Shown here: positions 325 to 18,544 of the stretch, one piece after another | Layout: every line of letters begins with the position of its first letter | Position numbering within the stretch: the stretch's first letter is position 1 | IMG/VR virus record: IMGVR_UViG_2534681835_000041 | Reading direction: 5' to 3' (one strand) | DNA length: 19,742 nucleotides | From: a virus | Taxonomy: Duplodnaviria; Heunggongvirae; Uroviricota; Caudoviricetes | The notes under the pieces: model-generated | Databases searched by the model: none | Seen by the model: the letters and a program-made list of their open reading frames with translations, nothing else | Told to the model about the DNA's origin: nothing | Translations under genes and position numbers: made by a program

Positions 325-365
325 TATGTGAAGTTCTTCGATAGTATGGAAGGCATTATATAAAA

Positions 366-393
366 GGACCCAATATTTATTGGGTTCTTTTTT
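366..393 (+). terminator. rho-independent terminator after the partial ORF
   Basis: Stem ggacccaat / attgggttc (one G-U pair), 4-nt loop, followed by TTTTTT at 388-393. Confidence 0.55.
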
Positions 394-876
394 CTCTATC
401 AATGCTATTAGCAGGGAGATATATCACCAGAGTTTAATGTGTGATTTTTTATTTATCGTCGAACCTGGATTGTTTATCATTGGCCTTAACAAAGTTAACG
501 GCTAATAAGATTATTTCCATCACTTCGTGAGAGCTTCATGCCTTGAGAGGATCTCAATTTTCTTTTGCAATGAGACAGGCGCTTCCTGTTGTTATGGTAT
601 AGTACCCCGCTATTGAGCCTCCTGAATAGTGATGCTGAATAACATAACCCCATGATATATCGATAAAATAATCTCTACATTTGAAAATGCACGGTAATTC
701 TGAAATGCAAAAAATCAACCAAACCAGCGCAATGCCTGAAAAAACTGACGTTCACTGGAGTGGTCGGTTTAGCGTTGCACCAATGCTCGATAGGATGTAC
801 CGTTTTTGAAAAACAAATAGTTATATACTTTGTGGGAGCCTATTGGGAACCCGGCGTTTTCATTTCAAGGTGTAAT

Positions 877-905
877 CCATACGCGGCTTAAGAATGAGAT
901 ATAAT
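877..905 (+). promoter_or_regulatory. candidate sigma70 promoter for the 178-aa ORF
   Basis: Perfect -10 TATAAT at 900-905 about 30 nt upstream of the ATG at 935; -35 is weak (ccatac). Sequence only. Confidence 0.3.
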
Positions 906-934
906 GCGACTTTTAGTGTTCCGCTTGAGAGGCC

Positions 935-1471
935 ATGATGCTTACCCTGGACGAGATAGGTCAATCAGTACGTAACAATATCCAGTTGATTATTGATCAT
1001 GTCGGCTTACCTCTTGCTGTTGGTCCGCTCAGTGATGATGATTACAAGATTCTGTGTGGTGGCTATGGTGAGCTTGAATGGGACTATGCGTTAAGTACCT
1101 ATGGCAACTCCAGAGAAAAGTATGAGTTCTGCATAAAACTTGTTCAGCAAGGTCGGGTTCAGGGAATACCATCAGGAGCAGCAATTTGTGTTTATGGGGT
1201 TGAAGAAAACATCTTTCGTATCCATATGATCGAAAGGTTTTCTAGAGAAGATGAATCTCACCCATTGAAAGGGCGCATGGTTTTACTCACTCTTATGAGT
1301 GCTTTTATATTTTGTAAAGCTGTTGAATGTAAAGTTGTCCACATTGTAGAGCCAGTACCAGAACTGGTGCAGTATTACGAGTCTTTTGGTTTCCGCATGG
1401 AACAGTGCGGTTATGTGATGTCGGCAGTCATTGATGAGCTGCAGGATATCTTTCTTAAATTTGCTCAGTAG
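935..1471 (+). CDS. hypothetical protein with a GNAT-acetyltransferase-like C-terminal region
   Basis: 178-aa ORF; tandem ATGs at 935 and 938 with gagagg at 927-932. C-terminal stretch 'VLLTLMSAFIFCKAVECKVVHIVEPVPELVQYYESFGFR' resembles the GNAT motif A/B region (Y-x-x-x-G-F), but the canonical R/Q-x-x-G-x-G/A is not clean. Family call is tentative. Confidence 0.5.
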   Translation: MMLTLDEIGQSVRNNIQLIIDHVGLPLAVGPLSDDDYKILCGGYGELEWDYALSTYGNSREKYEFCIKLVQQGRVQGIPSGAAICVYGVEENIFRIHMIERFSREDESHPLKGRMVLLTLMSAFIFCKAVECKVVHIVEPVPELVQYYESFGFRMEQCGYVMSAVIDELQDIFLKFAQ

Positions 1472-1667
1472 GTATAGACGAGAAGGGTCTACAAATTGTA
1501 GGATACCCGTCCAGATTACCTTAAAGGTACATCTATGGCAGTCGTTTTGTGCTTAAACTACTAAGAAACGATGTCACCAATCGACATGATCGATTGGCAT
1601 AAGTTAGCGAAACAAGCTAGCTTTAAAGAAAGGGTTAGAGACGCCTTTACTGTCTCGGGAGTTTTCT

Positions 1668-1841
1668 ATGAAAGATCAAAAAGCAACCAAGCCACAGGTT
1701 AAGTTCGACACAATGAAAGCATTCGCAGGTATGGGTGCTGCTGTTGAAGTTCTGATGAAGGCTGCTCCTAATGCGTTCACTCACGCTACTGTCTCTGGTA
1801 AAGAGCAGCAGGGTAAGCTTCGTCGTCGCAAAGCAGCATGA
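1668..1841 (+). CDS. small hypothetical protein (57 aa, Lys/Ala-rich)
   Basis: ATG at 1668 with GGGAG 8-12 nt upstream, TGA at 1839-1841, immediately followed by a strong terminator. Below the 60-aa cutoff of the supplied ORF track; found by hand translation. Confidence 0.4.
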   Translation: MKDQKATKPQVKFDTMKAFAGMGAAVEVLMKAAPNAFTHATVSGKEQQGKLRRRKAA

Positions 1842-1862
1842 TCATAGCTGGTGCTTTTTGAA

Positions 1863-1886
1863 AACCCGCCTTCAGGCGGGTTTTTT
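1863..1886. terminator. bidirectional rho-independent terminator between convergent genes
   Basis: Stem aacccgcc / ggcgggtt with ttca loop, T-run 1881-1886 on + and an A-run upstream giving a T-run on -. Sits between the + 57-aa ORF (ends 1841) and the - PrtN-like gene (ends 1889). Confidence 0.6.
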
Positions 1887-1888: not shown

Positions 1889-2170
1889 TTAGTGATGTTC
1901 TTTGTCCTTCTGTTTGACTGTTCTGACCTGTTCCCACTCGATACGTCCTTCTTCTCGCCTTTTGTCTATGTATTCCGCAAGATCTTGAATATTGATGCAA
2001 CGTTTTGCTTTTTGTGATGTGCCGATGCGATATGTTGGAACGGGCAACTTACAAGCGTTTGCTTTTGCTTCTGCCGTGGCTGGACTCATACCAAAGTACT
2101 TTTGGCTAACTGCTGAGAGTTCAATGTTTGGGGTATTGAATTCAGCCATCAGTAAAAACAAGGTGTTCAT
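1889..2170 (-). CDS. PrtN-family (pyocin activator-like) small regulator
   Basis: Motifs 'NTLFLLMAEF...VSQKYFG...LPVPTYRIG.SQKAKRCINIQDLAEYID' match my recollection of the PrtN family. Start chosen at the ATG at 2170 (GGAG 8 nt upstream); the track ORF extends to a GTG at 2197. Confidence 0.55.
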   Translation of the reverse strand: MNTLFLLMAEFNTPNIELSAVSQKYFGMSPATAEAKANACKLPVPTYRIGTSQKAKRCINIQDLAEYIDKRREEGRIEWEQVRTVKQKDKEHH

Positions 2171-2206
2171 AATTTTCTCCATCAAAACCGGCTGCACCCG
2201 GGAAAA

Positions 2207-2779
2207 TCATAATTCTGTGCTGGTGGCAGGAATTAATTTCTGCCAGATAGCGGAAACATATTTTGCCTGATGACGGGCATCAGCCAGGGCGTTGTGCCGT
2301 TCGCCATCGAAAGGCATGTCCATTTTGGGGTCGAATCCGATGGAACGCCCAAGCGTAACGATCGTGCGTACATCGTGGTCATTCCAGTACGCCCACGGGC
2401 AGATTTGTCCTGCTCGCTCGTAAGCTCCACGTAAAATTACGTTGTCGAAGGTGGCCCCGTTACCCCAGACTTTTAAATATTTCGTATTGTCTGCGTGCCG
2501 GTTAATGAAATGGTTTAGTTCTGAGAGAGCATCGCTGATCGACAAAGTATCATCAATACAGATTGCAGCTCGCGCTTCAGGGCTTTGTTTCAACCACCAC
2601 AGGATGGTATCGCCGTCAGGTGTAGCTCCTTGCTTCATAGCACTGTCTAGGCTGACAACCGCATAGAATTCTTGTCCGATGTCTCCGGTTTCTGGAGTGA
2701 AGAACACCGCGCCAATGGAAACGATCGGTGCATCCTTATTTTTCCCCATCGTCTCAAGGTCGATCATTAAGTTGTTCAT
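2207..2779 (-). CDS. phage 3'-5' exonuclease (DnaQ/DEDD-like)
   Basis: N-terminal 'LMIDLETMG' Exo-I-like motif with later acidic/His motifs ('HNALADA'). ATG at 2779 preceded by GGAGG; its start overlaps the stop of the upstream gene (TGATG). Confidence 0.7.
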   Translation of the reverse strand: MNNLMIDLETMGKNKDAPIVSIGAVFFTPETGDIGQEFYAVVSLDSAMKQGATPDGDTILWWLKQSPEARAAICIDDTLSISDALSELNHFINRHADNTKYLKVWGNGATFDNVILRGAYERAGQICPWAYWNDHDVRTIVTLGRSIGFDPKMDMPFDGERHNALADARHQAKYVSAIWQKLIPATSTEL

Positions 2780-3513
2780 CACTTCACCTCCTGCGGCGGT
2801 TCCGGTAGCGGCATCCAGTGAGTTGCTTGCTCAATACCATTACCCGGCTTAATCGTTGCATCTCCGCGCCGAAAGGTGCTTCCGGTATAGCGTGCGGAGC
2901 ATATTAGCGGTTCAACCAGAGAGCTATCGAAATTCACCGAAATAAGCACGTTCTGGCCCTTTTCAGGCATTCGATCACTACAGCTTATCCAACTATCCGG
3001 AGTTCCCGGAGAGTTGCCATTTACATCGAAGTTTGGCTCTGCGTCCTGAACCAAGAGGATGTAACCATTCTTGGCTGTATCAAGTTCTAACGCTTCGGTG
3101 ACGGTGCCGAAATAGCGATTACCTAAATCAGCATCACAAGTGCTTATATCAATGGAAACTTCCATGCCTTCGATTAATTCTGGCAAGTTGTAAGTTTGGC
3201 TTACAGGTTGGCTACCCTGAAGCATGGCGGCGCGGTGACACCAGATAATCCAGCCAAGCGCCATATCCCATGCCATGTATTCTCTATCGCCATTTTTTGC
3301 CCTACGGCGATCTACAGATTCCCCGAAACGCTTCTCCATAAATAATTCATAGGCTGCTCGTTCATCCGATACTGCTGCCAGTGATGCCAGTGTAATTTTT
3401 AATGCGGTAAGCATGTTGTTTTGATCTTCATCGAGTCCGAACGGTATTTCATCCCGTGCTGACTCAATGCTGGTAATCGTGTTCTGTAACCATTCTTTGG
3501 TAAGAGTATTCAT
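2779..3513 (-). CDS. Ea22-like phage protein with C-terminal DUF551-like domain
   Basis: 244-aa ORF; C-terminus '...ATHWMPLPEPP' is the characteristic DUF551 ending; N-terminus 'MNTLTKEWLQNTITSIE' is shared with the paralog at 3760-4176. ATG at 3513 with AGGTGA upstream. Confidence 0.6.
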   Translation of the reverse strand: MNTLTKEWLQNTITSIESARDEIPFGLDEDQNNMLTALKITLASLAAVSDERAAYELFMEKRFGESVDRRRAKNGDREYMAWDMALGWIIWCHRAAMLQGSQPVSQTYNLPELIEGMEVSIDISTCDADLGNRYFGTVTEALELDTAKNGYILLVQDAEPNFDVNGNSPGTPDSWISCSDRMPEKGQNVLISVNFDSSLVEPLICSARYTGSTFRRGDATIKPGNGIEQATHWMPLPEPPQEVK

Positions 3514-3515
3514 AA

Positions 3516-3707
3516 CTATTTCACCTTAATCTCAACATTTCGCAGCTTTAGCTCTACTGGCAAGTCTGACTTTCCTGTTAATGCTAATGCGAGATTTTCA
3601 GGAGTAATGAGAGCTGTTATTGTTTTCCCCATCGCCAGACGAATAATCATTCGTATCTCGCGATCGTCACATGCTCCCGGTCGAACAATTGATATTTGTC
3701 CGTTCAT
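3516..3707 (-). CDS. hypothetical small phage protein (63 aa from the ATG at 3707)
   Basis: In-frame ATG at 3707 with GGAGA 8-9 nt upstream; the track ORF begins at a TTG at 3728. No motif recognised. Confidence 0.4.
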   Translation of the reverse strand: MNGQISIVRPGACDDREIRMIIRLAMGKTITALITPENLALALTGKSDLPVELKLRNVEIKVK

Positions 3708-3759
3708 CTCACTCTCCTTTGATGCCAATGTTTACAGCCTGACAAGCCTCTTTGAGCAC

Positions 3760-4176
3760 TCAGTCAACAGCGTCTTTCCATGCTCCGGTTTCGACTGGCG
3801 GATTTTCACTCTTAACCTGTTCATAGAAGCGCACCGCTTTAATCAATCCTTCGGGTGTCAGTGGCACAGGCTGGGCCGTGAATAACGCCTGAATTTCATA
3901 GTTCGGCCTGTCGTTGCAATCCTCTTTTGTCGGTACATATTTCCAGTCACCAACCCACGGCTTCTCCTGAAAGTTCGTAACGCCTTTTCTCACGTAGCGA
4001 TATCGCCATGTCACCGGTTCGGCTTCCAGCGATACCAGCGCGACTTTAAATGCGGTAAGTACGTTTTTAACCACATCGATTTTGAATACTATTTCATCAC
4101 ATACAAACGATTTATCGTCTACTACCGTTTCAATTCCGGTAATCGTGTTTTGTAGCCATTTGGTTAATTCAGCCAT
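3760..4176 (-). CDS. hypothetical phage protein, N-terminal paralog of the Ea22-like gene
   Basis: 138-aa ORF; N-terminus 'MAELTKWLQNTITGIE' parallels 'MNTLTKEWLQNTITSIE' of 2779-3513. ATG at 4176. Confidence 0.55.
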   Translation of the reverse strand: MAELTKWLQNTITGIETVVDDKSFVCDEIVFKIDVVKNVLTAFKVALVSLEAEPVTWRYRYVRKGVTNFQEKPWVGDWKYVPTKEDCNDRPNYEIQALFTAQPVPLTPEGLIKAVRFYEQVKSENPPVETGAWKDAVD

Positions 4177-4185
4177 TTTTCATTA

Positions 4186-4201
4186 CCGCCCTTTCGGGCG
4201 G
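4186..4201 (-). promoter_or_regulatory. GAAA-tetraloop hairpin between a Shine-Dalgarno-like GGAGA and the ATG at 4176
   Basis: Minus-strand RNA reads caGGAGAccgcccGAAAgggcggtaatgaaaaATG: a 6-bp GC stem with GAAA loop lies between the only SD-like motif and the start codon. Confidence 0.35.
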
Positions 4202-4322
4202 TCTCCTGATGTTCTGAGGGTGCAGGAATCCCTCCGGTTAAGGATTAAATTTTATTTACAGAACTGAATTTAATTATTCAGATATACGTATCTGTAACCT
4301 TACGAACCTACTCACTGGATGC

Positions 4323-4796
4323 CTATTTCATAAAAATAATCCAGTGGGTTTTATCGTTTTTTCCTGTTCGTTGACCGATAACAGGTTTTCTGTCGGTCAG
4401 TACCAATATCTGGCGAACAGGTATTTGCGTTTCATTCCATTTAAAAATCAGAACGCCGGATGGACGCAACACACGAAAGGCTTCTTTAAATCCCTGCCGC
4501 AAATCATCACGCCAGGTATCTTTATTCAGCCGTCCATATTTCTTTCCCATCCAGGCGTTATCACCAACACGCTCAAGATGCGGAGGGTCGAATATAACCA
4601 TCGAAAAAGATGCGTCTGCAAATGGTAGTGCACGAAAATCAGCTATCAGATCAGGACTGATAATCAGGCGTCGTCCATCACACAATGTGTGCTCTTCCTT
4701 TCTGATATCGCTAAATATCGCCCGGTCGTCATTCTTATCGAACCAGAACATGCGACTGCCACAGCACATGTCGAGGATTGCTGCATGTCCAGTCAC
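4323..4796 (-). CDS. small SAM-dependent methyltransferase-like protein (DPPH motif)
   Basis: Motif I-like 'ILDMCCGSRM', then 'FDPPH' (DPPY-type motif IV position) and 'LRPSGVLIF'. Start set at the GTG at 4796 (AGGAGG 6 nt upstream, GTGA overlap with the upstream stop); the track ORF extends to an ATG at 4829 with no RBS. Confidence 0.5.
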   Translation of the reverse strand: MTGHAAILDMCCGSRMFWFDKNDDRAIFSDIRKEEHTLCDGRRLIISPDLIADFRALPFADASFSMVIFDPPHLERVGDNAWMGKKYGRLNKDTWRDDLRQGFKEAFRVLRPSGVLIFKWNETQIPVRQILVLTDRKPVIGQRTGKNDKTHWIIFMK

Positions 4797-5143
4797 TGGC
4801 TGCCTCCTTTGCGAAGCCGTTCCGCCCATTCTTCAAGGGATTTCTCTGCATATTCACCGGACAGGCCATCAATCGGATGCGATTCATTAGCTAACTCTTC
4901 TTTTGCTGACAGAATCATGCGTGTAACGTCGAAAACTTCAGCCAAAGGCTTATTGATAAATCCGTGATTGAAAGCAGCAGCAAGACGGCTTGCGGTATAG
5001 TTAATACCCTCGTTGCGAGCCTCAGCACGTACTTCATCGAATTTACGCACCAGATACTCAGCATTTGTTTCATTCACTTTCAGATCTCGCGGTACACATT
5101 TCCCGCGAAGAAACCCTTCCATTTCGAAAACATTCATGCGCAT
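4793..5143 (-). CDS. hypothetical phage protein (116 aa)
   Basis: ATG at 5143 overlaps the 3' end of the HD-domain gene; stop overlaps the downstream GTG start. Acidic, helical-looking sequence with no recognised motif. Confidence 0.5.
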   Translation of the reverse strand: MRMNVFEMEGFLRGKCVPRDLKVNETNAEYLVRKFDEVRAEARNEGINYTASRLAAAFNHGFINKPLAEVFDVTRMILSAKEELANESHPIDGLSGEYAEKSLEEWAERLRKGGSQ

Positions 5144-5638
5144 TTGTGTAACTCCGATAACTCGTTAAAACGTTCCATAAACATCCCGTAGGCATGGCTA
5201 GGTGCCAGTGGAATCACGTTGAACATCTCTGTTGCCGGGATGCCTTCCAGTACAGGCCAGAAAGAGCCATCATCAAGCCCGAGATCGCGGCGTTCGGTTG
5301 CCAGCATGATAAGATCGGCATATTTCACGGGCGTACTCATAACTGGGGGTAACCCGTATTTCTCACGGATTACGGCGTCAATTTTTTCTTCCATCCGTTT
5401 ATAGTCAGGAAGAAGGCGTTTCAGTGGAGCGGGGATGTCCTGGCAATACGCTTCTGTTGCATCATGCATTAATGCTTCAAAAGCAAATTCCTGCGGTACC
5501 AGCTGGCTGCAAAGAACCGCATGTTGGGCGACGCTGTAGAAGTGCGAAAGATGACCGGCAAAGCGACAGATATTTGAAAGGGAAACCGCGATATCGTTAA
5601 TATCGATGTCGTCTTTATTTATCCTGTCATAATAAAAA
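5134..5638 (-). pseudogene. HD-domain phosphohydrolase (YfdR-like 5'-nucleotidase type), 5'-truncated at the IS boundary
   Basis: The track ORF starts at an internal Met (5469), but the frame stays open upstream to the IS end at 5639 ('...NICRFAGHLSHFYSVAQHAVL...ALMHDATE...', H and HD motifs). No ATG, GTG or TTG precedes the first His motif before the IS. Confidence 0.6.
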
Positions 5639-5692
5639 TGAACCGCCCCGGAAATCCTGGAGACTAAACTCCCTGAGAAAGAGGTAAACAGG

Positions 5693-6019
5693 ATGACTAA
5701 AAATACTCGTTTTTCCCCCGAAGTCCGTCAGCGGGCGATTCGTATGGTTCTGGAAAGTCAGGATGAATATGACTCACAGTGGGCGGCAATTTGTTCCATT
5801 GCCCCAAAGATTGGCTGTACGCCGGAGACTCTGCGTGTCTGGGTTCGCCAGCATGAGCGGGATACCGGGGGCGGTGATGGTGGGCTCACCAGCGCTGAAC
5901 GTCAGCGTCTGAAAGAGCTGGAACGTGAAAATCGTGAACTGCGCCGCAGTAACGATATCCTTCGCCAGGCTTCCGCTTATTTTGCGAAGGCGGAGTTCGA
6001 CCGCCTCTGGAAAAAATGA
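5693..6019 (+). CDS. IS3-family transposase OrfA (HTH, leucine-zipper)
   Basis: 108 aa '[22 protein letters not shown]...[30 protein letters not shown]'; ends in an A6 tract at 6011-6016 overlapping the orfB start. Confidence 0.9.
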
Positions 6020-6906
6020 TGCCACTGCTGGATAAGCTGCGTGAGCAGTACGGGGTCGGACCGGTATGCAGCGAACTGCATATTGCCCCGTCAACGTATT
6101 ACCATTGTCAGCAACAGCGACATCATCCGGATAAACGCAGTGCCCGTGCGCAGCACGACGACTGGCTGAAGAGAGAGATACAGCGCGTATACGATGAAAA
6201 TCATCAGGTGTACGGTGTGCGTAAAGTCTGGCGTCAGTTGTTACGGGAAGGAATCAGGGTGGCCAGATGTACAGTGGCACGTCTCATGGCGGTTATGGGA
6301 CTTGCCGGTGTTCTCCGGGGTAAAAAGGTCCGTACGACCATCAGCCGGAAAGCCGTTGCCGCAGGCGACCGCGTAAACCGTCAGTTCGTGGCAGAACGAC
6401 CTGACCAGCTGTGGGTGGCTGATTTTACTTACGTCAGCACATGGCAGGGCTTCGTCTATGTGGCGTTTATCATTGATGTGTTTGCCGGATACATCGTGGG
6501 GTGGCGGGTCTCATCGTCTATGGAAACGACATTCGTGCTGGATGCGCTGGAGCAGGCGTTGTGGGCCCGTCGTCCGTCTGGCACCATCCATCACAGCGAT
6601 AAAGGCTCTCAGTATGTGTCACTGGCCTATACGGAGCGACTAAAAGAAGCCGGATTACTGGCATCAACAGGGAGTACAGGCGACTCGTATGACAACGCGA
6701 TGGCTGAGAGCATCAATGGTCTTTACAAAGCGGAGGTAATACACCGTAAGAGCTGGAAAAACCGTGCAGAAGTGGAACTGGCCACACTAACGTGGGTGGA
6801 CTGGTATAACAATCGACGATTGCTGGGAAGGCTGGGCCATACTCCTCCGGCAGAAGCAGAAAAAGCTTATTATGCTTCCATCGGAAACGATGATCTGGCA
6901 GCCTGA
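6016..6906 (+). CDS. IS3-family transposase OrfB (DDE integrase core)
   Basis: 296 aa with the rve-type core ('WVADFTYV', 'HSDKGSQY', '[15 protein letters not shown]'); ATG at 6016 overlaps the orfA stop in the -1 frame. Confidence 0.9.
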
Positions 6907-6948
6907 GTTCACAGATAAAACACTCTCCAGGAAACCCGGGGCGGTTCA

Positions 6949-7354
6949 GTTCTTTGACTGGTTCAAAAGAGTGACTGGTTCTGGGTGAATCTCCTGCACT
7001 ACCCCCTGGTGCAACTCCTGCACTACCTGGTGAATTTGCTGCACCAGATAGTGAATTATTTGCACTACTCCCTGGTGAATCTCCTGCACCATCCAGATGA
7101 AGGAGATAGATATTAATTGAGTTACCTTTTTCACCTTTCCGGGTGACTTTTTTTACCAGCCCGGAATCACAAAGGGCCGCAATATGATTCATCACAGAAC
7201 GTTTGCTAATCTCGCACTGATCAGCAATATGCTGGTAGCTGGGCCAGCACTCACCCTGATCGCTGGCATTATCAGCCAGCTTGATCAGAACCAGTTTTCG
7301 CAATGGATTACCCACTCGAATTTTCATCGCTTTAACCATCAGCTCCATACTCAT
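6949..7354 (-). pseudogene. replication initiator O-like gene (N-terminal HTH domain), 3'-truncated by IS copy 1
   Basis: N-terminus 'LRKLVLIKLADNASDQGECWPSYQHIADQCEISKRSVMNHIAALCDSGLV' resembles the N-terminal DNA-binding region of lambda O and related replisome organisers. The ORF continues through iteron-encoded low-complexity sequence and then reads into the IS. ATG at 7354 overlaps the upstream stop. Confidence 0.5.
6983..7094. repeat. five imperfect ~21-25-bp direct repeats (iteron-like) inside the O-like ORF, next to an AT-rich stretch
   Basis: Units built on gtgaat/gtgcaa..tcctgcac start at 6985, 7009, 7030, 7051 and 7076 (spacing 24/21/21/25 bp); an AT-rich segment follows at about 7100-7140. 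Confidence 0.5.
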
Positions 7355-7575
7355 GCTGCACCTCCGAGATGCTTCATGTTTTTTCCGGAGCGAAAGGCTA
7401 TAAGCGGCATACTGACGCGGTAATTACGGCCCAGCGGTTCACAAATCACCTTCTGGCATTCACGGTCAACCAGGCTAACACGTAGAACATGCCCTGCAGG
7501 CGTGGTGTACCACTGACCCGGACGAGGACAACGGAAAGTTTGATTGGTAAACCGTTTGAAAATATTCCGGATCAT
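7351..7575 (-). CDS. hypothetical small protein (74 aa, Cys-containing)
   Basis: ATG at 7575 overlaps the stop of the Rha-domain gene (ATGA), and its own stop overlaps the O-like ATG (ATGA). No motif recognised. Confidence 0.45.
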   Translation of the reverse strand: MIRNIFKRFTNQTFRCPRPGQWYTTPAGHVLRVSLVDRECQKVICEPLGRNYRVSMPLIAFRSGKNMKHLGGAA

Positions 7576-8735
7576 TTGCGCCCCCTTACCTCTGAAGGGT
7601 TCAGCGACAAATTTATGAGGCAGGCCAGCGCCGAAGCATCATTAATATAGTCATATAAGCTAACAGCCAGCGGAGATTCGGCTTTTGCCAACATAGGATA
7701 AAGCTGCTGCAGCCAGACCTGATGAATTGATGAAATGTAGGAATAGAGAACACTGGCGTTATGTGCAACGTCGCTCGGTACAGAGGGCTTTGAAAGCTGT
7801 TTCTCCATCTGGTTAAAGGCATTGATGTATGCCTCTTTGAACTGGGCAGCACGTTTGCCAGTGAAGCCCATTGCCAGGAACGCGAAGCCGTCGCGGGTGA
7901 TGTGGTAGCAAGGAAGTTTGCGAGTACCGCCGTTGGGCTGGTGTACCAAAATTGATGTCTCCGCAAAATTGCGGGCACAAAACTCTGGAGAACAATCCAA
8001 AATGCGGATCTTTTTCAGAACATCGTCATGACGTTTAGAGAAGAAGTCAGCAACAGCCAAAGAAGATGTAACAGCCTGACCATCAACGATGGCAATTTCA
8101 GGTTGAGAGAGGGTTGGGAGAGTAGTCATGGTGACAGCCCCGGTAGTCAGTTTTTCAGAAAACTCACCACATGGGACGCCAATCACAGAGGTGGTGAGAC
8201 GTACAGGGTTGGCGTTACCGGAGACTACCGAACCCGGCCCGACCGAAGTCGGCCCTGTACGCCCCACCATAATTTGGGCGTAGCAATGCTCATGACACGA
8301 AAAAACCGCATGAGCGCGGTTATGCTCAGTAATCAATTTCAGGACGCCAATCCCGGCACCCGCTTTATAAGGTGCCTGAACAGTGTAACGTCCCGGAATG
8401 GCAGAATCAATGTGCTGGTGGTCCTTCACACTCAACAAAATCACGCCTGAATTTCCACAAAGGACTAAAGCACTCATGCGGGTAGTCTTTGCGAAGATAG
8501 ATAACGCGCTGTGTTTCTGGCTCCCAACGAATAACATGAACATAAAGTCCTCTTCCGTCACGAAACCAGCGGTTAAGTTCCTGCACAACTCGCCCCCCAC
8601 AGTCAGGTAAAGTTCTCTGTGGTTACTTACAGCCAGGTGATTTGGTAATCTGCATTCATACCGTAACAACAGGTGTTCAGCGACGCTGACCACCAGCTGT
8701 TGCGACAAACGGTTATTTGCCGTTAAACTGTTCAT
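7572..8735 (-). CDS. Rha-family phage regulatory protein with an unusual ~200-aa N-terminal extension
   Basis: Residues ~205-300 ('PEIAIVDGQAVTSSLAVADFFSKRHDDVLKKIRIL...YHITRDGFAFLAMGFTGKRAAQFKEAYINAFNQME') match the Rha domain. The 387-codon frame is open from an ATG at 8735 that overlaps the CII-like stop (ATGA). Alternative internal start at 8129 would give a 185-aa Rha-only protein. Confidence 0.5.
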   Translation of the reverse strand: MNSLTANNRLSQQLVVSVAEHLLLRYECRLPNHLAVSNHRELYLTVGGELCRNLTAGFVTEEDFMFMLFVGSQKHSALSIFAKTTRMSALVLCGNSGVILLSVKDHQHIDSAIPGRYTVQAPYKAGAGIGVLKLITEHNRAHAVFSCHEHCYAQIMVGRTGPTSVGPGSVVSGNANPVRLTTSVIGVPCGEFSEKLTTGAVTMTTLPTLSQPEIAIVDGQAVTSSLAVADFFSKRHDDVLKKIRILDCSPEFCARNFAETSILVHQPNGGTRKLPCYHITRDGFAFLAMGFTGKRAAQFKEAYINAFNQMEKQLSKPSVPSDVAHNASVLYSYISSIHQVWLQQLYPMLAKAESPLAVSLYDYINDASALACLINLSLNPSEVRGRK

Positions 8736-9283
8736 GCGTTAGTTTCTCCACAGACACAAAACGCCACGACGCCCGGAGCTGCACACTCGCGGGCGTCACT
8801 CTTTTCTGGAGCGCAAAAGATTTTGTAGACCAGTGCTGCATGCTCCTGGAGCTTCGAAATTGACAGATACAACTCATCATTAATTGCTGTCTGCTCGTGT
8901 GGCTCCACTACCCCATCTTCGATTGCCGAACGAATCTGCTTTGAGTAACTCCCGATCTGTTCGATGACTTCCAGCAGGCGCTGGTTTATATCGGCGTTCT
9001 CTACTTCCTCAAGTTCAGGAAGCGATACAAACACCCCACCAGCAGACTGTGCGACAGCATCCGCAATGTAGTGAGTGCCAGCCGCGCGCTGTAAAATCAT
9101 TGCCCATCCCAGCGGGAAAATCTGATCGCCATCTGCACGAAGGCGGTTGAATAAAGCGTTCTCTGTTACATCCAGCCACTCAGCAGCTTCAGCGTAACCC
9201 CCCGGCAACGCCGCGATAGTTTTTCTGACAGCTTTCACGTACCACTCAGGCTGTTTTTCCACTTTCCAGTGATGCTTACCCAC
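8732..9283 (-). CDS. phage regulatory CII-like protein (CP76-type), tentative
   Basis: 183 aa; pattern '...ALFNRLRADGD...GGVFVSLPELEE...' resembles the CII/CP76 family as I recall it. GTG start at 9283 with AGGAG 7 nt upstream; overlaps the cro-like 3' end by 8 nt. Confidence 0.5.
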   Translation of the reverse strand: MGKHHWKVEKQPEWYVKAVRKTIAALPGGYAEAAEWLDVTENALFNRLRADGDQIFPLGWAMILQRAAGTHYIADAVAQSAGGVFVSLPELEEVENADINQRLLEVIEQIGSYSKQIRSAIEDGVVEPHEQTAINDELYLSISKLQEHAALVYKIFCAPEKSDARECAAPGVVAFCVCGETNA

Positions 9284-9536
9284 GGCTTATCTCCTGTTCC
9301 TGTGGTTTAAACCCATTCTGGTTTTGGCTAGATTGAAAACGTGCCGGATAAAGAATCTGCATTTCGCTGATTTCACCCTTAAAAAAATTGGCCAGACGTT
9401 CTGCAAGATCGATAGATGGAATTTGTTCCAGTCTTTCAATACGACTCAGCGTCGCTGTATTGACCTGAACGCCCGCAGCAACATGCTGCAAAGTAAATCC
9501 GTGCGCCTTACGCACATTCCGTAATGGTGATTGCAT
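9276..9536 (-). CDS. Cro-like HTH (XRE-family) regulator
   Basis: 86 aa with HTH 'FTLQHVAAGVQVNTATLSRIE'; ATG at 9536 with GGAGG 5 nt upstream; transcribed divergently from the CI-like gene across an operator-rich spacer. Confidence 0.65.
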   Translation of the reverse strand: MQSPLRNVRKAHGFTLQHVAAGVQVNTATLSRIERLEQIPSIDLAERLANFFKGEISEMQILYPARFQSSQNQNGFKPQEQEISRG

Positions 9537-9633
9537 ATAACCTCCACATATTGCGTGATGAGCATATTATTTCACGCAAATATTTTGCGCAAGTTGATTT
9601 GCTTAACGCGCAATAAAGAAATGTAATAAACGC
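9537..9633. promoter_or_regulatory. oR-like immunity control region with divergent promoters (pR-like toward cro, pRM-like toward cI)
   Basis: Inverted repeats TTGCGTGA(9551-9558)/TCACGCAA(9572-9579), palindrome TTGCGCAA (9585-9592), TTGC-N7-GCAA (9599-9613). Minus-strand TTGCGC(-35)-17-TAATAT(-10). Plus-strand TTGCTT-18-TAATAA ending 6 nt before the cI ATG, which has no SD. Confidence 0.5.
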
Positions 9634-10326
9634 ATGAACATAGGAAATCGAGTCAGACAACTTCGCCAGGCGAAGAACATGAAAATCGCCGATCTCGCTG
9701 AAGCAATAGGAGTGGATGCGGCGAATATCTCGCGCCTCGAAACAGGTAAGCAGAAACAATTCACTGAACAAGCCCTGAGTAATATTGCCAGGAGCTTAGG
9801 TGTTGATATTGCTGATCTCTTTACCTCAGACCTCAAAAGTAATACTGTATGTAAAAACAGTATTAGTGAGGATGTTGCGCAGGTGAAGGATGTATTCCGT
9901 ATTGAAATGCTGGATGTCAGTGCCAGTGCGGGAAATGGCCTTATCCAGGGCGGTGATGTCATTGATGTGATTCATGCCATTGAATACAGAACTGATAATG
10001 CTGTATCGATGTTTGGTGGACGACCAGCAAATCACATTAAAGTTATCAACGTTCGTGGGGACAGTATGTGTCCAACCATTGAGCCAGGAGATCTCATCTT
10101 CGTTGATATCAGTATCAATCAGTTTGATGGGGATGGTATATATGTATTTGGTTTTGATGATAAAATTTACGTCAAACGACTGCAAATGATACCTGATAAA
10201 CTGCTGGTAATTTCTGATAATCAGATTTACCGCGAATGGGGAATTACCAGCGAAAACGAACATCGGTTTATGGTCTTTGGAAAGGTCTTAATCAGTCAGT
10301 CACAAACCCTTAAGCGACACAATTAA
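9634..10326 (+). CDS. CI-like phage repressor (HTH plus S24 LexA-type autopeptidase domain)
   Basis: N-terminal HTH ('MKIADLAEAIGVDAANISRLETG'); C-terminal S24 motifs 'VRGDSMCPTIEPGD' (Ser nucleophile) and 'KIYVKRL' (Lys). Confidence 0.8.
   Translation: MNIGNRVRQLRQAKNMKIADLAEAIGVDAANISRLETGKQKQFTEQALSNIARSLGVDIADLFTSDLKSNTVCKNSISEDVAQVKDVFRIEMLDVSASAGNGLIQGGDVIDVIHAIEYRTDNAVSMFGGRPANHIKVINVRGDSMCPTIEPGDLIFVDISINQFDGDGIYVFGFDDKIYVKRLQMIPDKLLVISDNQIYREWGITSENEHRFMVFGKVLISQSQTLKRHN
9843..9862. promoter_or_regulatory. near-consensus LexA (SOS) box inside the cI coding sequence
   Basis: TACTGTATGTAAAAACAGTA, against consensus TACTGT-(AT)4-ACAGTA: both outer hexamers match exactly. A possible -35 TTTACC at 9820-9825 places the box over a -10 position (TACTGT). 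Confidence 0.5.
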
Positions 10327-10348
10327 CCCCCTACCTCAACATCAATTA

Positions 10349-10368
10349 GCCACCAGAAGGTGGCTTTT
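10349..10368 (+). terminator. rho-independent terminator downstream of cI
   Basis: Stem gccacc / ggtggc with agaa loop, followed by TTTT at 10365-10368; 23 nt after the cI stop. Confidence 0.6.
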
Positions 10369-10382
10369 CATTACCCACCAAA

Positions 10383-10435
10383 TTGCATATCTCGCAATAA
10401 AAACACTTGCACAATGCGCAACTTCATTTTATCTT
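10383..10435 (+). promoter_or_regulatory. oL-like operator pair with a candidate pL-like promoter
   Basis: Two perfect TTGC-N7-GCAA sites (10383-10397, 10407-10421), the same motif as at 9599-9613; TTGCAC(10407)-17-TATCTT(10430-10435) as a possible rightward promoter. Confidence 0.45.
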
Positions 10436-10846
10436 TCTTTCCAGACCTACAAACAAGGTACTAACAAAATTTGGTTGTAACACGGCGTATGGCACATGCG
10501 TCGTTAGCGGTCTGGGGACGTTAAAGGGGACAATCCACTCCTTGCTCGGGCAAACAAACCAGGTAGCCGGAATGTGCAAGTCAATGAGGATGCTGATAAG
10601 ACGCCTAACCAGCGTGGCGATTCGGTTTGACGCCTGGGAAGAGACCAGGGTGCAACGATGAGGGCATTTATGGAACCGCGACAAAGTGTGGTGCCGTAAC
10701 TGGCTAAGTGCTCTCAGCGTTGTGGTAATCCGCGAAATGGCGCGGCGGTAAGTATGGCGGGGTTATTCCTTCCCCGTTGAGGACACCGGGTTGTCAGGTT
10801 GACCATACGCTTAAGTGACAAGCCCACCACAACAGCCACTGCTTTG

Positions 10847-10892
10847 GCGGTACCAGTTTGTACACTTGCTTCCGGCTGGTACCGCTCTTTTT
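10847..10892 (+). terminator. strong hairpin plus T-run in the leader upstream of the first rightward gene; overlaps a boxA-like motif
   Basis: Perfect 10-bp stem gcggtaccag(10847-10856)/ctggtaccgc(10876-10885), 19-nt loop, then TCTTTTT. CGCTCTTTTTAC at 10884-10895 resembles boxA (CGCTCTTTAACAA). Confidence 0.5.
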
Positions 10893-11029
10893 ACAAAACA
10901 GAGAAGAGCATCACCGGACGACGGGCTCATAACCCAATCCACCCGGGCGGCTGCCACCGCAGGTGTTCTTCTCTGTTTTGTGGAGAAACCAACCGACCTT
11001 GCAGGGTCGATATGATGAGGAGCAGCAAA

Positions 11030-11392
11030 ATGGCTAGCGAACGCAGTACTGATGTGCAGGCATTTATCGGGGAGCTGGACGGCGGCGTATTTGAAACCAA
11101 AATCGGCGCAGTTCTCAGTGAAGTCGCTTCCGGTGTGATGAACACGAAAACCAAAGGTAAGGTCTCACTCAACCTGGAAATCGAACCATTTGATGAGAAC
11201 CGTGTGAAAATCAAACACAAACTCTCATATGTTCGCCCGACTAACCGCGGGAAAATTTCCGAAGAAGACACCACCGAAACGCCGATGTATGTCAATCGCG
11301 GTGGTCGCCTGACTATTCTGCAGGAAGACCAGGGACAATTACTGACTCTTGCCGGTGAACCTGACGGAAAACTCCGCGCAGCAGGTCATTAA
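11030..11392 (+). CDS. hypothetical phage protein (120 aa)
   Basis: ATG at 11030 with GAGGAG 7 nt upstream; the track ORF extends upstream to 10799 but that part is low-complexity with no RBS. Size and position resemble a CPS-53 YfdP-type gene, recalled from memory only. Confidence 0.5.
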   Translation: MASERSTDVQAFIGELDGGVFETKIGAVLSEVASGVMNTKTKGKVSLNLEIEPFDENRVKIKHKLSYVRPTNRGKISEEDTTETPMYVNRGGRLTILQEDQGQLLTLAGEPDGKLRAAGH

Positions 11393-11457
11393 TATCGTTC
11401 TTAATTAACTGATTATTTATCTCATCACTGAATATCTTTATATAGTGAGGACTTATT

Positions 11458-12282
11458 ATGTCTCAGAACTTAGACGCAACCGCAATTAATCAAATCCATG
11501 CCCTTATTTCTGCTCAGGGTGTTAATGAAATTATCAGTAAGATTGGTGCCGATGCTGTGGCATTGCCTGAGAATTTCCGCATTCATGATCTGGAAAAATT
11601 TAATTTAAATCGCTTCCGTTTCCGTGGTGCGCTTTCCACTGCCAGCATCGATGACTTTACCCGTTATTCTAAAGATCTTGCAGATGAAGGCACCCGCTGC
11701 TTTATTGATGCTGATAATATGCGTGCCGTCAGTGTGCTTAACCTGGGTACTATTGATGAACCAGGTCACGCAGATAACACCGCCACTCTCAAACTGAAAA
11801 AGACAGCACCGTTCTCTGCTCTGTTGTCTGTTAATGGCGAGCGTAACTCCCAGAAATCACTGACAGAATGGATTGAAGACTGGGCCGACTACCTTGTGGG
11901 CTTTGATGCTAATGGTGACACCATTCAGGCAACAAAAGCGGCTGCGGCGGTCCGTAAAATCACGATTGAAGCAAACCAGACCGCTGATTTTGAAGATAAT
12001 GACTTCAGCGGCAAACGCTCCCTGATGGAGTCTGTCGAAGCGAAGACCAAAGACATTATGCCAGTGGCATTTGAATTTAAATGCATTCCGTTTGAAGGTC
12101 TGAAAGAACGTCCGTTTAAATTACGCCTCAGCATTATCACTGGCGATCGTCCGGTACTGGTTCTGCGCATTATTCAGCTGGAGGCGGTGCAGGAAGAAAT
12201 GGCTAACGAATTTCGTGATCTGCTTGTTGAGAAATTCAAGGACAGCAAAGTAGAAACCTTTATTGGTACTTTCACCGCCTGA
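11458..12282 (+). CDS. hypothetical phage protein (274 aa; possibly YfdQ/DUF2303-like)
   Basis: ATG at 11458 with GAGG 7 nt upstream; long ORF with ordinary composition. The family assignment rests on size and context recall only. Confidence 0.6.
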
Positions 12283-12409
12283 TTTCATTACTGCAAATGC
12301 CCCTGAGGGGGCATTTATGGAAACGTAATTTACTCAATAATCGCCGGATGGTGAGGGATTCTTTTTACCAGAATTCAGCGCGGTGCAGCGCATATACGTG
12401 GAGAACAAA

Positions 12410-12853
12410 ATGTCATTTATTAAAACTTTTTCCGGGAAACCAGTCAATGAACCAATAGCTGTTGGTGAATCTGCTGATGAGTCTGTGCGAGTTCGTTCAA
12501 ACCGACCGGAATACTCTCCGGAGTTTGAGCAGGCATGGCTGGCATATCCCAAACGTGCTGGTGGCAATTCAAAATCTGCAGCCTTCAAAGCCTGGAAAGC
12601 CCGTTTGAATGAGGGGGTAAACCCCGAAACCATGCTGGAAGGTGTGAAACGCTACGCGGGCTGGGTATCTGCGATGGGTAACAGCGGCACACAATTTGTG
12701 AAACAGGCTGTCACGTTCTTTGGTCCGGATCGTCATTTCGAAGAATCCTGGGAAGTTCCTGCGGTATCTGCAGCCAGACGTGAGGACCCGTACTTCAAAG
12801 CCAGTTACGACAACGTGGACTACAGCCAGATCCCGGCAGGATTCAGGGGGTGA
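12410..12853 (+). CDS. hypothetical phage protein (147 aa) with 'FEQAWLAYPKRAGG..KSAAFKAWKA' motif
   Basis: ATG at 12410 with GGAG 6 nt upstream (the track ORF starts at a GTG at 12383). The motif resembles ones I associate with phage replication-associated proteins, unverified. Confidence 0.5.
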   Translation: MSFIKTFSGKPVNEPIAVGESADESVRVRSNRPEYSPEFEQAWLAYPKRAGGNSKSAAFKAWKARLNEGVNPETMLEGVKRYAGWVSAMGNSGTQFVKQAVTFFGPDRHFEESWEVPAVSAARREDPYFKASYDNVDYSQIPAGFRG

Positions 12854-12855
12854 TC

Positions 12856-12948
12856 ATGAGTCTGTTAAATGACGTTCAGAAATTCATTGAAGCCCATCCG
12901 GGCTGTACTTCCGGAGACATTGCGGATGCTTTTTACGTGGGGGCTTAA
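12856..12948 (+). CDS. candidate 30-aa micro-ORF between the 147-aa gene and the Dam-like gene
   Basis: ATG at 12856, 2 nt after the upstream stop, with AGGGGG upstream; its TAA overlaps the Dam ATG (TAATG). Supported only by tight operon packing. Confidence 0.3.
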   Translation: MSLLNDVQKFIEAHPGCTSGDIADAFYVGA

Positions 12949-13601
12949 TGAGTAATAAATATTGCCAGGCGCTGGTAGAACTGCGGAACAAACCAGCCCA
13001 TGAACTGAAGGAAGTGGGCGATCAGTGGCGCACGACGGACAGCATTTTCTGGGGGATTAACACCATGTTTGGCCCGTTTGTTCTGGATCTGTTCACTGAC
13101 GGTGATAACGCCAAATGTGCTGCGTATTACACGGCGGAAGACAACGCGCTGGCGCATGACTGGTCAGAACGTCTTGCGGAGCTTAAAGGTGCTGCCTTTG
13201 GTAATCCCCCATACAGCCGCGCCAGTCAGCATGAGGGGAAATACATCACTGGCATGCGTTACATCATGAAACATGCCAGTGCCATGCGTGATAAAGGCGG
13301 GCGCTATGTTTTCCTGATCAAAGCTGCCACCAGCGAAGTGTGGTGGCCGGAAGATGCAGACCATATTGCTTTTATTCGCGGGCGTATTGGTTTTGAACTG
13401 CCTGCCTGGTTTATCCCGAAAGACGAAAAGCAGGTGCCAACAGGTGCTTTCTTCGCTGGTGCTATTGCTGTTTTCGACAAGACCTGGAAGGGACCGGCAA
13501 TCAGCTACATCGGGCGCGATGAACTTGAGGCATGTGGTGAGGCATTTCTGGCGCAGGTTCGCCAGCAGGCGGAAAAACTGGTCAGGGAGATGGCGGCATG
13601 A
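12948..13601 (+). CDS. phage N6-adenine DNA methyltransferase (Dam-type)
   Basis: 'FGNPPYS' (NPPY catalytic motif) in a 217-aa protein typical of the phage Dam family; stop overlaps the next start (ATGA). Confidence 0.7.
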   Translation: MSNKYCQALVELRNKPAHELKEVGDQWRTTDSIFWGINTMFGPFVLDLFTDGDNAKCAAYYTAEDNALAHDWSERLAELKGAAFGNPPYSRASQHEGKYITGMRYIMKHASAMRDKGGRYVFLIKAATSEVWWPEDADHIAFIRGRIGFELPAWFIPKDEKQVPTGAFFAGAIAVFDKTWKGPAISYIGRDELEACGEAFLAQVRQQAEKLVREMAA

Positions 13602-13924
13602 CGACGTTAACTCAATGCCAGCAGCAGGTGCTGGATATGCTGATTTCTTACCAGAAAGAACGTGGCTTCCCGCCAACTAATCAGGAGGTGGCAACCATGC
13701 TGGGATACCGTTCAGTGAATGCAGCGGTGGAGCATCTTCGCGCACTGGAGAAAAAAGGCGTCATCACGATAAAGCGTGGCGTGGCATGGGGGATAACGCT
13801 TCATACCGCGGTGAAGGACGACGACAGCGAGGCAGCCGGGATTATCCGCGCACTGCTTGCCGGTGAGGAAAACGCCAGACTGCGTGCAGCCCACTGGTTA
13901 CATGAGAGGGGCCTGAAAGTATGA
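13598..13924 (+). CDS. LexA N-terminal DNA-binding-domain homolog lacking the S24 peptidase domain
   Basis: 'MTTLTQCQQQVLDMLISYQKERGFPPTNQEVATMLGYRSVNAAVEHLRALEKKGVITIKRGVAWGITL' aligns by eye with E. coli LexA 1-70 ('[68 protein letters not shown]'). The protein ends at 108 aa with no Ala-Gly cleavage site or Ser/Lys dyad. Confidence 0.7.
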   Translation: MTTLTQCQQQVLDMLISYQKERGFPPTNQEVATMLGYRSVNAAVEHLRALEKKGVITIKRGVAWGITLHTAVKDDDSEAAGIIRALLAGEENARLRAAHWLHERGLKV

Positions 13925-14277
13925 AGCTGATCCTGCCTTTCCCGCCCAGCGTGAACACGTACTGGCGACACCCCAACAAAGGGGCGTTTGCTGGTAAGAG
14001 TCTGATAAGCGCAGCGGGGCGCAAATTCCAGAGCGCGGCATGCGCAGCAATAGTTGAGCAGTTACGTCGTCTGCCGAAACCAACGTCGGCACCTGCTTCA
14101 GTGGAGATCGTGTTGTTTCCTCCGGATAACCGGATCCGCGATCTGGACAACTATAACAAGGCGCTGTTTGACGCCCTGACCCACGCGGGTGTGTGGGAAG
14201 ACGACAGACAGGTGAAAAGAATGCTGGTGGAGTGGGGACCGGTTATCCCGAAAGGGAAGGTCGAGATCACTATCTGA
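13921..14277 (+). CDS. rusA: RusA-family Holliday junction resolvase, 3' end replaced by the IS insertion
   Basis: 'LPFPPSVNTYWRH...RDLDNYNKALFDALTHAGVWEDDRQV' matches RusA. The stop codon TGA (14275-14277) is supplied by the first bases of the IS; the displaced 11-codon tail is found after the IS at 15588-15623. Confidence 0.75.
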   Translation: MKLILPFPPSVNTYWRHPNKGAFAGKSLISAAGRKFQSAACAAIVEQLRRLPKPTSAPASVEIVLFPPDNRIRDLDNYNKALFDALTHAGVWEDDRQVKRMLVEWGPVIPKGKVEITI

Positions 14278-14316
14278 ACCGCCCCGGGTTTCCTGGAGAG
14301 TGTTTTATCTGTGAAC

Positions 14317-15207
14317 TCAGGCTGCCAGATCATCGTTTCCGATGGAAGCATAATAAGCTTTTTCTGCTTCTGCCGGAGGAGTATGGCCCAGCCTTCCCAG
14401 CAATCGTCGATTGTTATACCAGTCCACCCACGTTAGTGTGGCCAGTTCCACTTCTGCACGGTTTTTCCAGCTCTTACGGTGTATTACCTCCGCTTTGTAA
14501 AGACCATTGATGCTCTCAGCCATCGCGTTGTCATACGAGTCGCCTGTACTCCCTGTTGATGCCAGTAATCCGGCTTCTTTTAGTCGCTCCGTATAGGCCA
14601 GTGACACATACTGAGAGCCTTTATCGCTGTGATGGATGGTGCCAGACGGACGACGGGCCCACAACGCCTGCTCCAGCGCATCCAGCACGAATGTCGTTTC
14701 CATAGACGATGAGACCCGCCACCCCACGATGTATCCGGCAAACACATCAATGATAAACGCCACATAGACGAAGCCCTGCCATGTGCTGACGTAAGTAAAA
14801 TCAGCCACCCACAGCTGGTCAGGTCGTTCTGCCACGAACTGACGGTTTACGCGGTCGCCTGCGGCAACGGCTTTCCGGCTGATGGTCGTACGGACCTTTT
14901 TACCCCGGAGAACACCGGCAAGTCCCATAACCGCCATGAGACGTGCCACTGTACATCTGGCCACCCTGATTCCTTCCCGTAACAACTGACGCCAGACTTT
15001 ACGCACACCGTACACCTGATGATTTTCATCGTATACGCGCTGTATCTCTCTCTTCAGCCAGTCGTCGTGCTGCGCACGGGCACTGCGTTTATCCGGATGA
15101 TGTCGCTGTTGCTGACAATGGTAATACGTTGACGGGGCAATATGCAGTTCGCTGCATACCGGTCCGACCCCGTACTGCTCACGCAGCTTATCCAGCAGTG
15201 GCATCAT
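14317..15207 (-). CDS. IS3-family transposase OrfB (copy 2)
   Basis: Identical 296-aa translation to 6016-6906. Confidence 0.9.
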
Positions 15208-16440: not shown

Positions 16441-16441
16441 G

Positions 16442-17437: not shown

Positions 17438-17450
17438 GTGGAGAACGAGC

Positions 17451-18542: not shown

Positions 18543-18544
18543 AT

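Follow-up and report, generated by a model that had tools for sequence, protein, structure and literature searches.

A putative two-gene moron pairing a GNAT-fold protein with a 57-residue partner at the dusA junction of a lambdoid prophage

We analysed a 19,742-nt stretch of viral DNA (IMG/VR record IMGVR_UViG_2534681835_000041; hereafter the window), in which an earlier note, made from the sequence letters alone, had picked out positions 325-1886 as a single cargo-like island holding two genes between two terminators. Alignment to reference genomes indicates that this interval is a composite, made of host chromosome up to position 790 and, from there, an mEp460-type lambdoid prophage integrated in dusA. 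The phage part, 791-1886, is the outermost module of the prophage and lies between attP and xis in the free phage. Comparison with related cassettes indicates that it is a self-contained two-gene moron, consisting of a predicted promoter (P1), a gene for a GNAT-fold protein, a predicted internal promoter (P2) with a structured leader of about 160 nt, a gene for a 57-amino-acid (aa) protein, and a terminator. Our confidence in this anatomy (the junction, the limits of the cassette, the GNAT fold and the obligate pairing of the two genes) is very high. What the cassette does is a more tentative matter: with a probability of roughly 0.4, we propose a toxin-antitoxin-like moron, that is, an acetyltransferase controlled by its small partner. 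The features of the cassette are as follows.

900-905, + strand: predicted -10 hexamer TATAAT of cassette promoter P1, conserved in position
938-1471, + strand: divergent GNAT-fold acyltransferase-like gene, phrog_4350, 177 aa, or 178 aa if read from the ATG at 935
1475-1504, + strand: predicted internal sigma70-like promoter P2, with TAGACG (1475-1480), an 18-nt spacer and TAGGAT (1499-1504)
1516-1530, + strand: leader hairpin 1, TTACC/GGTAA, 5 pairs, 90-96% of alignment cells paired
1577-1597, + strand: leader hairpin 2, CCAATCGA/TCGATTGG, 8 bp closing a 5-nt loop, paired at 97% across 30 sequences
1602-1622, + strand: leader hairpin 3, 7 bp, 93% paired
1638-1656, + strand: leader hairpin 4, GAGAC/GTCTC, adjoining the Shine-Dalgarno sequence GGGAG (1657-1661), 92% paired, with A-to-G changes that give G-U pairs
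1668-1841, + strand: gene for the basic partner protein, 57 aa, phrog_2741, identified by conservation, selection and a structural model
1860-1885, no strand assigned: intrinsic terminator common to the cassette and the convergent xis gene, an 11-bp stem, 6 of its pairs GC, and then a T-run

The two genes are found together almost without fail. A small open reading frame (ORF) detectable by a hidden Markov model lies no more than 500 bp downstream of the large-gene homologue in 107 of 108 loci, most of which are near-identical E. coli copies; the exception, from Shewanella, has a diverged 57-aa ORF that retains ..LLKAAP.. and the basic ..AA end. In phage Eeyore, at 42% identity, a diverged 53-aa version of the partner follows the GNAT homologue, and a chromosomal homologue of only ~20% identity is followed after 9 nt by a 57-aa ORF in which L.FVKATMP replaces LMKAAP (motif L.FVKAxxP). 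We found no locus with the GNAT gene but without the small gene. The Eeyore partner ORF is unannotated (L121 3798-3959, PP925821.1), the deposited record listing several spurious-looking short ORFs instead.

The genomic surroundings of the pair vary widely. It sits between the antiterminator gene Q and the holin gene in Franconibacter, Atlantibacter, Enterobacter and phage Eeyore, and just 5' of the holin gene in Edwardsiella. In Photorhabdus it lies within the tail/baseplate module of a myovirus, in Shewanella at the edge of a prophage, and in E. coli and Salmonella at the dusA attL. These placements indicate that the GNAT and 57-aa genes move as one mobile two-gene moron among unrelated phage positions. 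At dusA, the GNAT version is present in 337 of 5426 complete E. coli genomes (about 6%), and the cassette also occurs in prophages of Salmonella, Enterobacter, Cronobacter, Edwardsiella, Photorhabdus, Xenorhabdus and Shewanella. Nothing on these proteins, the pair or the leader turned up in the literature, whether searched by accession or by theme. The earlier note had missed both the obligate pairing and the fact that an inverted repeat it reported is one hairpin of a conserved leader RNA.

We then considered the larger protein. The gene that the earlier note gave as 178 aa is present, and its start is most likely the second ATG (938, 177 aa), as in RefSeq and in all homologues, which begin MLTL. 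The protein has no Pfam or NCBIfam match at E<=1 and no PADLOC match, and phrog_4350 is a family of unknown function. Among 61 relatives, a single one touches the curated GNAT model PF00583, at E 0.006, short of a significant match. Word-indexed searching recovered 51 relatives from Enterobacterales, plus one from Shewanella, and an exhaustive profile search reached only 91 cluster representatives at E<=1e-3; the family is therefore small and divergent. The AlphaFold2 (AF2) model built from a 24-sequence alignment (predicted local distance difference test, pLDDT, 90.4; predicted template modelling score, pTM, 0.88) follows the GNAT order beta1-alpha1-alpha2-beta2-4-alpha3-beta5-alpha4-beta6, so that the description 'GNAT-like' is, on this model, correct for the fold. 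Comparison with BFVD structures returned generic viral GNATs only, at a template modelling score of about 0.5; the family profile matches nourseothricin acetyltransferase weakly across motifs A and B, and PDB sequence and profile searches otherwise gave noise or weak GNAT matches only.

In motif B, Y148, G152 and F153 are invariant in the 24 sequences, and Y148 is at least 90% conserved in the 61 sequences, down to 16% identity; the beta4 glutamate, E100, is likewise invariant in the 24-sequence alignment. The combination of a Glu on beta4 with a Tyr in alpha4 is shared with RimI. At the position of motif A, the invariant H109-P110-L111-x-G113-[RK]-M115 aligns to RG-HGVGR of nourseothricin acetyltransferase, with only one Gly kept.

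The small ORF called by the earlier note at 1668-1841 appears, from its conservation, to be a real gene. Homologues occur in Escherichia, Salmonella, Enterobacter, Cronobacter, Hafnia and other genera, out to Photorhabdus and Xenorhabdus, and a ratio of nonsynonymous to synonymous substitution (dN/dS) of 0.05-0.2 points to strong purifying selection. The AF2 model, of low confidence (pLDDT 61), predicts a single central helix (residues 15-37) with disordered basic tails, and the conserved motif of this helix is FDT..AF..GAAVEVLMKAAP. The protein has no Pfam, NCBIfam or PADLOC match, and phrog_2741 is also of unknown function. Among the phage-borne versions listed, the C-terminus is ..AA, ..AAA or ..AVA; that of the window protein, ...RRRKAA, we take to resemble the ClpX degrons of ssrA and MuA. 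As a separate matter, we discarded K50 as an acetyl acceptor, because this position is Arg in the diverged homologues of phage Eeyore and Shewanella.

Between the two genes lies a predicted internal promoter followed by a leader that is conserved in structure. Across 14 diverged spacers, the hexamers TAGACG and TA(G/C)GAT of P2 are invariant and 18 nt apart, and the sequence between them varies. In an alignment of 30 distinct leader sequences fitted to the structural model, 93.5% of cells are paired, versus 20-42% with slid partners, and the covariation score is 0.242, versus at most 0.067 in slid controls; none of 500 shuffles reached the observed values, and an unfitted MAFFT alignment gave 89.7% paired and a score of 0.258. 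The leader (1505-1667) has a folding z of -3.47, with none of 200 shuffles as good. Hairpin 2 is the inverted repeat that the earlier note had described as ccaatcg-N7-cgattgg at 1579-1599: it is there, but at 1577-1597, and extends to 8 bp around a 5-nt loop. Changes in its 5' arm, from CCAATCGG to CUGAUUGG, retain pairing only via G-U wobbles. An Rfam search over 300-2300 returned only terminator look-alikes, far below the gathering scores.

These spacer elements might alternatively be DNA operators, palindromes bound by a repressor, in which case the 57-aa gene would have no structured leader. TTACC..GGTAA and ..CGATTGGTAA are indeed conserved in sequence, and the former closely follows the P2 -10 element, as is classic for an operator. 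Because the sequence of hairpin 1 is itself conserved, this element could equally be a protein-binding palindrome, and for hairpin 1 the two readings are compatible with each other. The rest of the leader is harder to accommodate: hairpin 3 keeps its pairing without sequence conservation, through compensatory double changes at 4 of its 7 pairs, and the G-U wobbles of hairpins 2 and 4 would turn into A-C mismatches if the opposite strand were read or if the elements were DNA palindromes. Since these two hairpins vary through wobbles, they fit an RNA read from the + strand, and we regard the operator account of the whole spacer as improbable.

A covariance model of the leader, R1, detects the motif in Enterobacteriaceae-type cassettes only; it is absent from the Photorhabdus, Edwardsiella and Shewanella cassettes, which have other spacers, from the variant described below in which a different gene pair precedes the small gene, and from the ~20% distant homologue, which has no spacer. 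The leader is therefore a regulatory addition specific to one lineage, outside the core pair. A conserved U-rich tract at 1622-1630 (UUUAAAG in the window, UUUAAUUUG in relatives) comes after hairpin 3 and could act within the leader as a weak attenuator or terminator. We also considered the published 'sRNA-17' of an mEp460-like prophage as the spacer RNA and rejected it, because its sequence maps to 10865-10885 on the - strand. That site is an exact match to the 5' end of the ArcA-modulated 'sRNA-17' of E. coli K1 RS218 (PMC7719688, Table S2 primers); the window prophage therefore carries the sRNA-17 locus, unrelated to the cassette spacer.

The outer elements of the cassette are consistent with an autonomous unit. 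The TATAAT that the earlier note saw upstream of the larger gene is at 900-905, and the P1 -10 element has counterparts at equal distance from the start codon in Salmonella (TATAAT), Franconibacter and Atlantibacter (TACAAT) and Enterobacter (TAAACT); no -35 element of good quality was found for P1. By chance, about 0.8 perfect 7-bp inverted repeats (loop of 3-10 nt) and about 0.4 copies of TATAAT would be expected per 1.5 kb, so that neither is significant alone; both are credible only because the same placement is kept in diverged homologous cassettes. A terminator lies 3' of the small gene in every homologous cassette inspected, and a terminator scan found 5 terminator-like sites in the region, versus 1.5 expected from shuffles. 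Thus the cassette has its own predicted promoter and terminator, supported by consensus and conservation.

Base composition and orientation set the cassette apart as well. GC content is 0.413 over 325-1886, versus 0.496 in the rest of the window and 0.464 in the adjacent early genes, in agreement with the AT-richness judged by eye in the earlier note; for 791-1886 alone, the gap is modest (0.428 versus 0.496 for 1889-19742). The two + strand ORFs oppose a - strand phage block, as had also been noted. Like other morons, the cassette is inserted between conserved modules, at different sites in different phages, and deviates in composition. Its suggested moron or accessory character accordingly holds for 791-1886, with its own promoter and terminator, lower GC, opposite strand and at least three other genomic positions, and fails for 325-790. 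Neither protein matches a housekeeping family in Pfam, NCBIfam, PHROGs or PADLOC searches, which leaves that suggestion standing for the cassette.

The pairing is broken in one direction only. In 205 complete E. coli genomes, a Panacea antitoxin gene and a 139-aa gene replace the GNAT gene and the leader, and the small gene is kept. Phages Lys8385Vzw (L013 1986-2974) and SKA5 (L014) carry the same replacement in the same slot, with a Panacea domain (PF13274, E 2e-19) and an overlapping 139-aa gene. These two genes, which are likely a PanAT toxin-antitoxin pair, sit directly upstream of the same 57-aa gene and terminator and are joined right at the Shine-Dalgarno sequence. Further, in the O111:H8 strain 7-16 37A (L126 1265-2478), IS1203 interrupts the GNAT gene within its first codons, cutting it off from P1, and the 57-aa gene is intact. 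The attP-xis slot looks like a cargo-exchange hotspot in which the GNAT cassette and PanAT alternate. Because the GNAT gene is never alone, its partner is sometimes alone, and the slot is swapped with PanAT, the arrangement fits toxin-antitoxin-like behaviour.

In the mechanism that we favour, the GNAT enzyme would be the effector, probably acetylating a cellular or phage macromolecule with acyl-coenzyme A (CoA), and the 57-aa, largely disordered protein would bind the enzyme via its one conserved helix and restrain or regulate it. The partner would be produced in excess, from P1 and P2 together, and would probably be short-lived, being disordered and ending in a degron-like C-terminus. Such behaviour could serve prophage maintenance or abortive-infection defence. 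A more specific form of this proposal is that the cassette is an undescribed two-component module, in which a deeply divergent GNAT effector is restrained by a disordered, protease-labile partner of ~57 aa whose synthesis depends on a promoter of its own and on a four-hairpin leader without a counterpart in Rfam; the module would act in addiction or abortive infection, hop between moron sites and be wired to the dusA promoter in the lysogen; taken as a whole, we consider this form possible but doubtful. Several observations weigh against the toxin-antitoxin-like interpretation. Neither protein has sequence similarity to known GNAT toxins or to their ribbon-helix-helix (RHH)/DUF1778 antitoxins, nor a PADLOC match; with the enzyme gene first and a spacing of 93-248 nt, the arrangement departs from that of known GNAT toxin-antitoxin pairs; the 57-aa protein has no recognisable DNA-binding domain; and the pyrophosphate-binding motif A is non-canonical, HPLKGRM versus Q/RxxGxG/A. 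The partner of the distant homologue ends ...QQIQ, so the degron-like end is not kept there, and the small gene could have been kept next to PanAT through hitch-hiking that followed a recent recombination.

The main rival is a non-toxic, partner-dependent acetyltransferase, in which the small protein is an activating or targeting subunit and no addiction occurs. The target might be a ribosomal protein, RNA polymerase, or a receptor-pathway or defence protein, with lysogenic conversion, superinfection exclusion or anti-defence as the outcome. The same pairing and mobility evidence supports this explanation, as does the place of the cassette just behind Q and ahead of the lysis genes, a site of late-expressed morons; moreover, AcrVA5 is a GNAT-fold anti-CRISPR protein. 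It leaves unexplained, however, why the small gene survives without the GNAT gene and never the reverse, and why the partner has an extra promoter of its own, and an obligatory GNAT activator of ~57 aa has no known example. We judge it somewhat unlikely. The remaining explanations are minor. If the 57-aa protein were the target of the enzyme, for instance a regulatory peptide or one resembling a ribosomally synthesized and post-translationally modified peptide, activated by acetylation, then the strict co-occurrence of the genes, the recognition-like conserved helix and the Lys-rich flexible termini would follow. Yet the conserved Lys of E.QGK.R is Arg in phage Eeyore and Shewanella, the N-terminus of the small protein is variable, the cassette has no export, protease or immunity gene, and the peptide gene is kept without the enzyme in the 205 genomes; we give this account little credence. 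Least probable of all, and by our estimate very improbable, is that the two ORFs are unrelated hitch-hikers, linked through recent common descent of one segment and with incidental hairpins. Both proteins do belong to PHROGs of unknown function, and near-identical E. coli copies do make up most of the 108 loci. The linkage nevertheless holds where the proteins are 40-70% identical, in Escherichia, Salmonella, Enterobacter, Edwardsiella, Photorhabdus, Xenorhabdus and Shewanella, and again in the ~20% chromosomal homologue, with completely different flanks and spacers, and it concerns a small ORF under purifying selection and a leader with compensatory changes.

The left part of the interval has a different origin. 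The features of the junction, together with the gene that follows the cassette, are as follows.

1-324, + strand: 3' end of host yjbM (DUF2713; Pfam E 6e-71), identical to K-12 yjbM
362-391, no strand assigned: intrinsic terminator of host yjbM, a bidirectional hairpin with a 13-bp stem and then a T-run, inside a 99.9% K-12-identical block
687-790, + strand: original 5' end of host dusA (its first 35 codons), now displaced, annotated in RefSeq as truncated dusA
783-790, no strand assigned: attL core/overlap ATGCTCGA, common to host dusA and phage attP
833-851, + strand: two copies of the repeat (T/C)GGGA(A/G)CC in the P' arm, candidate arm-type sites for the integrase on the basis of repeat clustering
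1889-2197, - strand: phage excisionase (PrtN family), encoded at the head of the leftward early operon (Pfam PyocinActivator E 4e-23; phrog_1300; mEp460 annotation)

Window bases 1-2300 are 100% identical to many E. coli O111 genomes, a Shiga-toxigenic E. coli (STEC) type of chromosome. Aligned to K-12, positions 1-790 are identical at 789 of 790 sites, running from yjbM through the yjbM-dusA intergenic region into dusA, and the match ends exactly at 790. The match to mEp460, a free lambdoid phage, begins at 783 (100%), and DNA identity across 800-1900 is 99.8-99.9%. The gene order in mEp460 is int (-), attP, gp23 (178 aa, +), gp24 (57 aa, +), excisionase (-) and exonuclease onward, and a diverged mimic of the dusA 5' end lies just upstream of its copy of the octamer ATGCTCGA. 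Integrases specific to dusA insert in the dusA 5' end and supply a new 5' end, the original being left at the far junction (PMC4482086). The same arrangement is seen here, with a truncated original dusA 5' end at one junction and the element-encoded mimic beside int. Because the limits of K-12 and mEp460 identity fit this published behaviour (PMC4482086), we assign 783-790 as the attL core. The dusA junction is already known biology; the cargo of dusA-integrating elements has been described as highly diverse, and the GNAT/57-aa cassette is not described there (PMC4482086). The repeat (T/C)GGGA(A/G)CC occurs 5 times within 230 bp around the mEp460 attP core, of 9 copies on both strands of the 8.1-kb locus.

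RefSeq labels 687-791 'tRNA-dihydrouridine synthase, missing C-terminus', and the displaced dusA frame continues into phage DNA to a stop at 807-809. The native dusA promoter region (325-686) still lies upstream of it. Because no terminator is predicted between 790 and 935 in the terminator scan, transcription in lysogens may also read through from this displaced host promoter into the cassette.

This junction changes the picture of one island between terminators at 366-393 and 1863-1886. Hairpins do exist, at 362-391 and 1860-1885, but the left 466 bp are host DNA. Because 325-790 is host chromosome, the left terminator belongs to yjbM, and the bracketing arises by chance from where the junction falls; on the left, the true boundary is the attL core inside dusA. 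Likewise, what had been taken for a non-coding stretch of about 600 bp (325-934) consists mostly of the yjbM terminator, the dusA promoter and 35 dusA codons, followed by attL, the P' arm and P1. Two further observations concern the flanks. Upstream of window position 1, the yjbL-yjbM region of O111 (L001 2344-3324) is annotated as one frameshifted DUF2713 pseudogene, and K-12 has separate yjbL and yjbM genes. On the phage side, a 244-aa DUF551-type ORF (2779-3513, -) is intact in the window and is represented by two partial pseudogene pieces in RefSeq O111:H- 11128.

With a third of the supposed island being host DNA and its boundary the dusA attL, the corrected map matters for prophage delimitation in O111-type genomes of enterohaemorrhagic E. 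coli and STEC. The analysis also delimits a small accessory unit, comprising two proteins and one RNA leader; the leader is a candidate new cis-regulatory RNA motif. Should the toxin-antitoxin or defence interpretation be true, the cassette would represent a new architecture among GNAT toxins and a new class of small antitoxin; should the enzyme be a targeted acetyltransferase, it would be a candidate lysogenic-conversion or anti-defence factor.

Among known systems that resemble the cassette are the GNAT toxin-antitoxin systems TacAT, AtaRT, KacAT and ItaRT, which share with it a GNAT-fold protein of ~175 aa and a small protein partner on mobile elements, as well as the conserved general-acid Tyr in alpha4. 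The TacAT-type proteins have no sequence similarity to the cassette proteins. Their partner lies upstream, whereas the cassette partner lies downstream, 93-248 nt away (9 nt in one distant homologue), and, unlike theirs, has its own promoter and structured leader and no RHH/DUF1778 domain; it has no Pfam match at all and is predicted to be a single helix with disordered tails. Because partner order, partner domain and sequence similarity all differ, the cassette should not be filed under GNAT/RHH toxin-antitoxin systems. From the protein N-terminal acetyltransferases NatD/Naa40, RimI and Ard1, the 177-aa protein differs by its 9-13% identity, an extra N-terminal helix and a non-canonical CoA pyrophosphate loop.

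In sister dusA prophages, this very attP-xis slot is filled by PanAT systems, which lie immediately upstream of the same 57-aa gene; their proteins are unrelated to the GNAT/57-aa pair, and their relevance is that the slot exchanges toxin-antitoxin or defence-type cargo. Prophages with dusA-specific integrases, and mEp460 itself, are like the window in insertion at the 5' end of dusA, in the replacement 5' end and in the displaced end (687-790), with no essential difference. The cassette is of a known kind, a moron, and its enzyme has a known fold. Like the morons of lambdoid phages, such as those between Q and the lysis cassette or beside att, it has a predicted autonomous promoter and terminator and a GC content below that of its flanks, is inserted between conserved modules, and recurs at different sites in different phages. 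Unlike the usual lambdoid moron, it comprises two genes, with an internal second promoter and a leader RNA supported by covariation.

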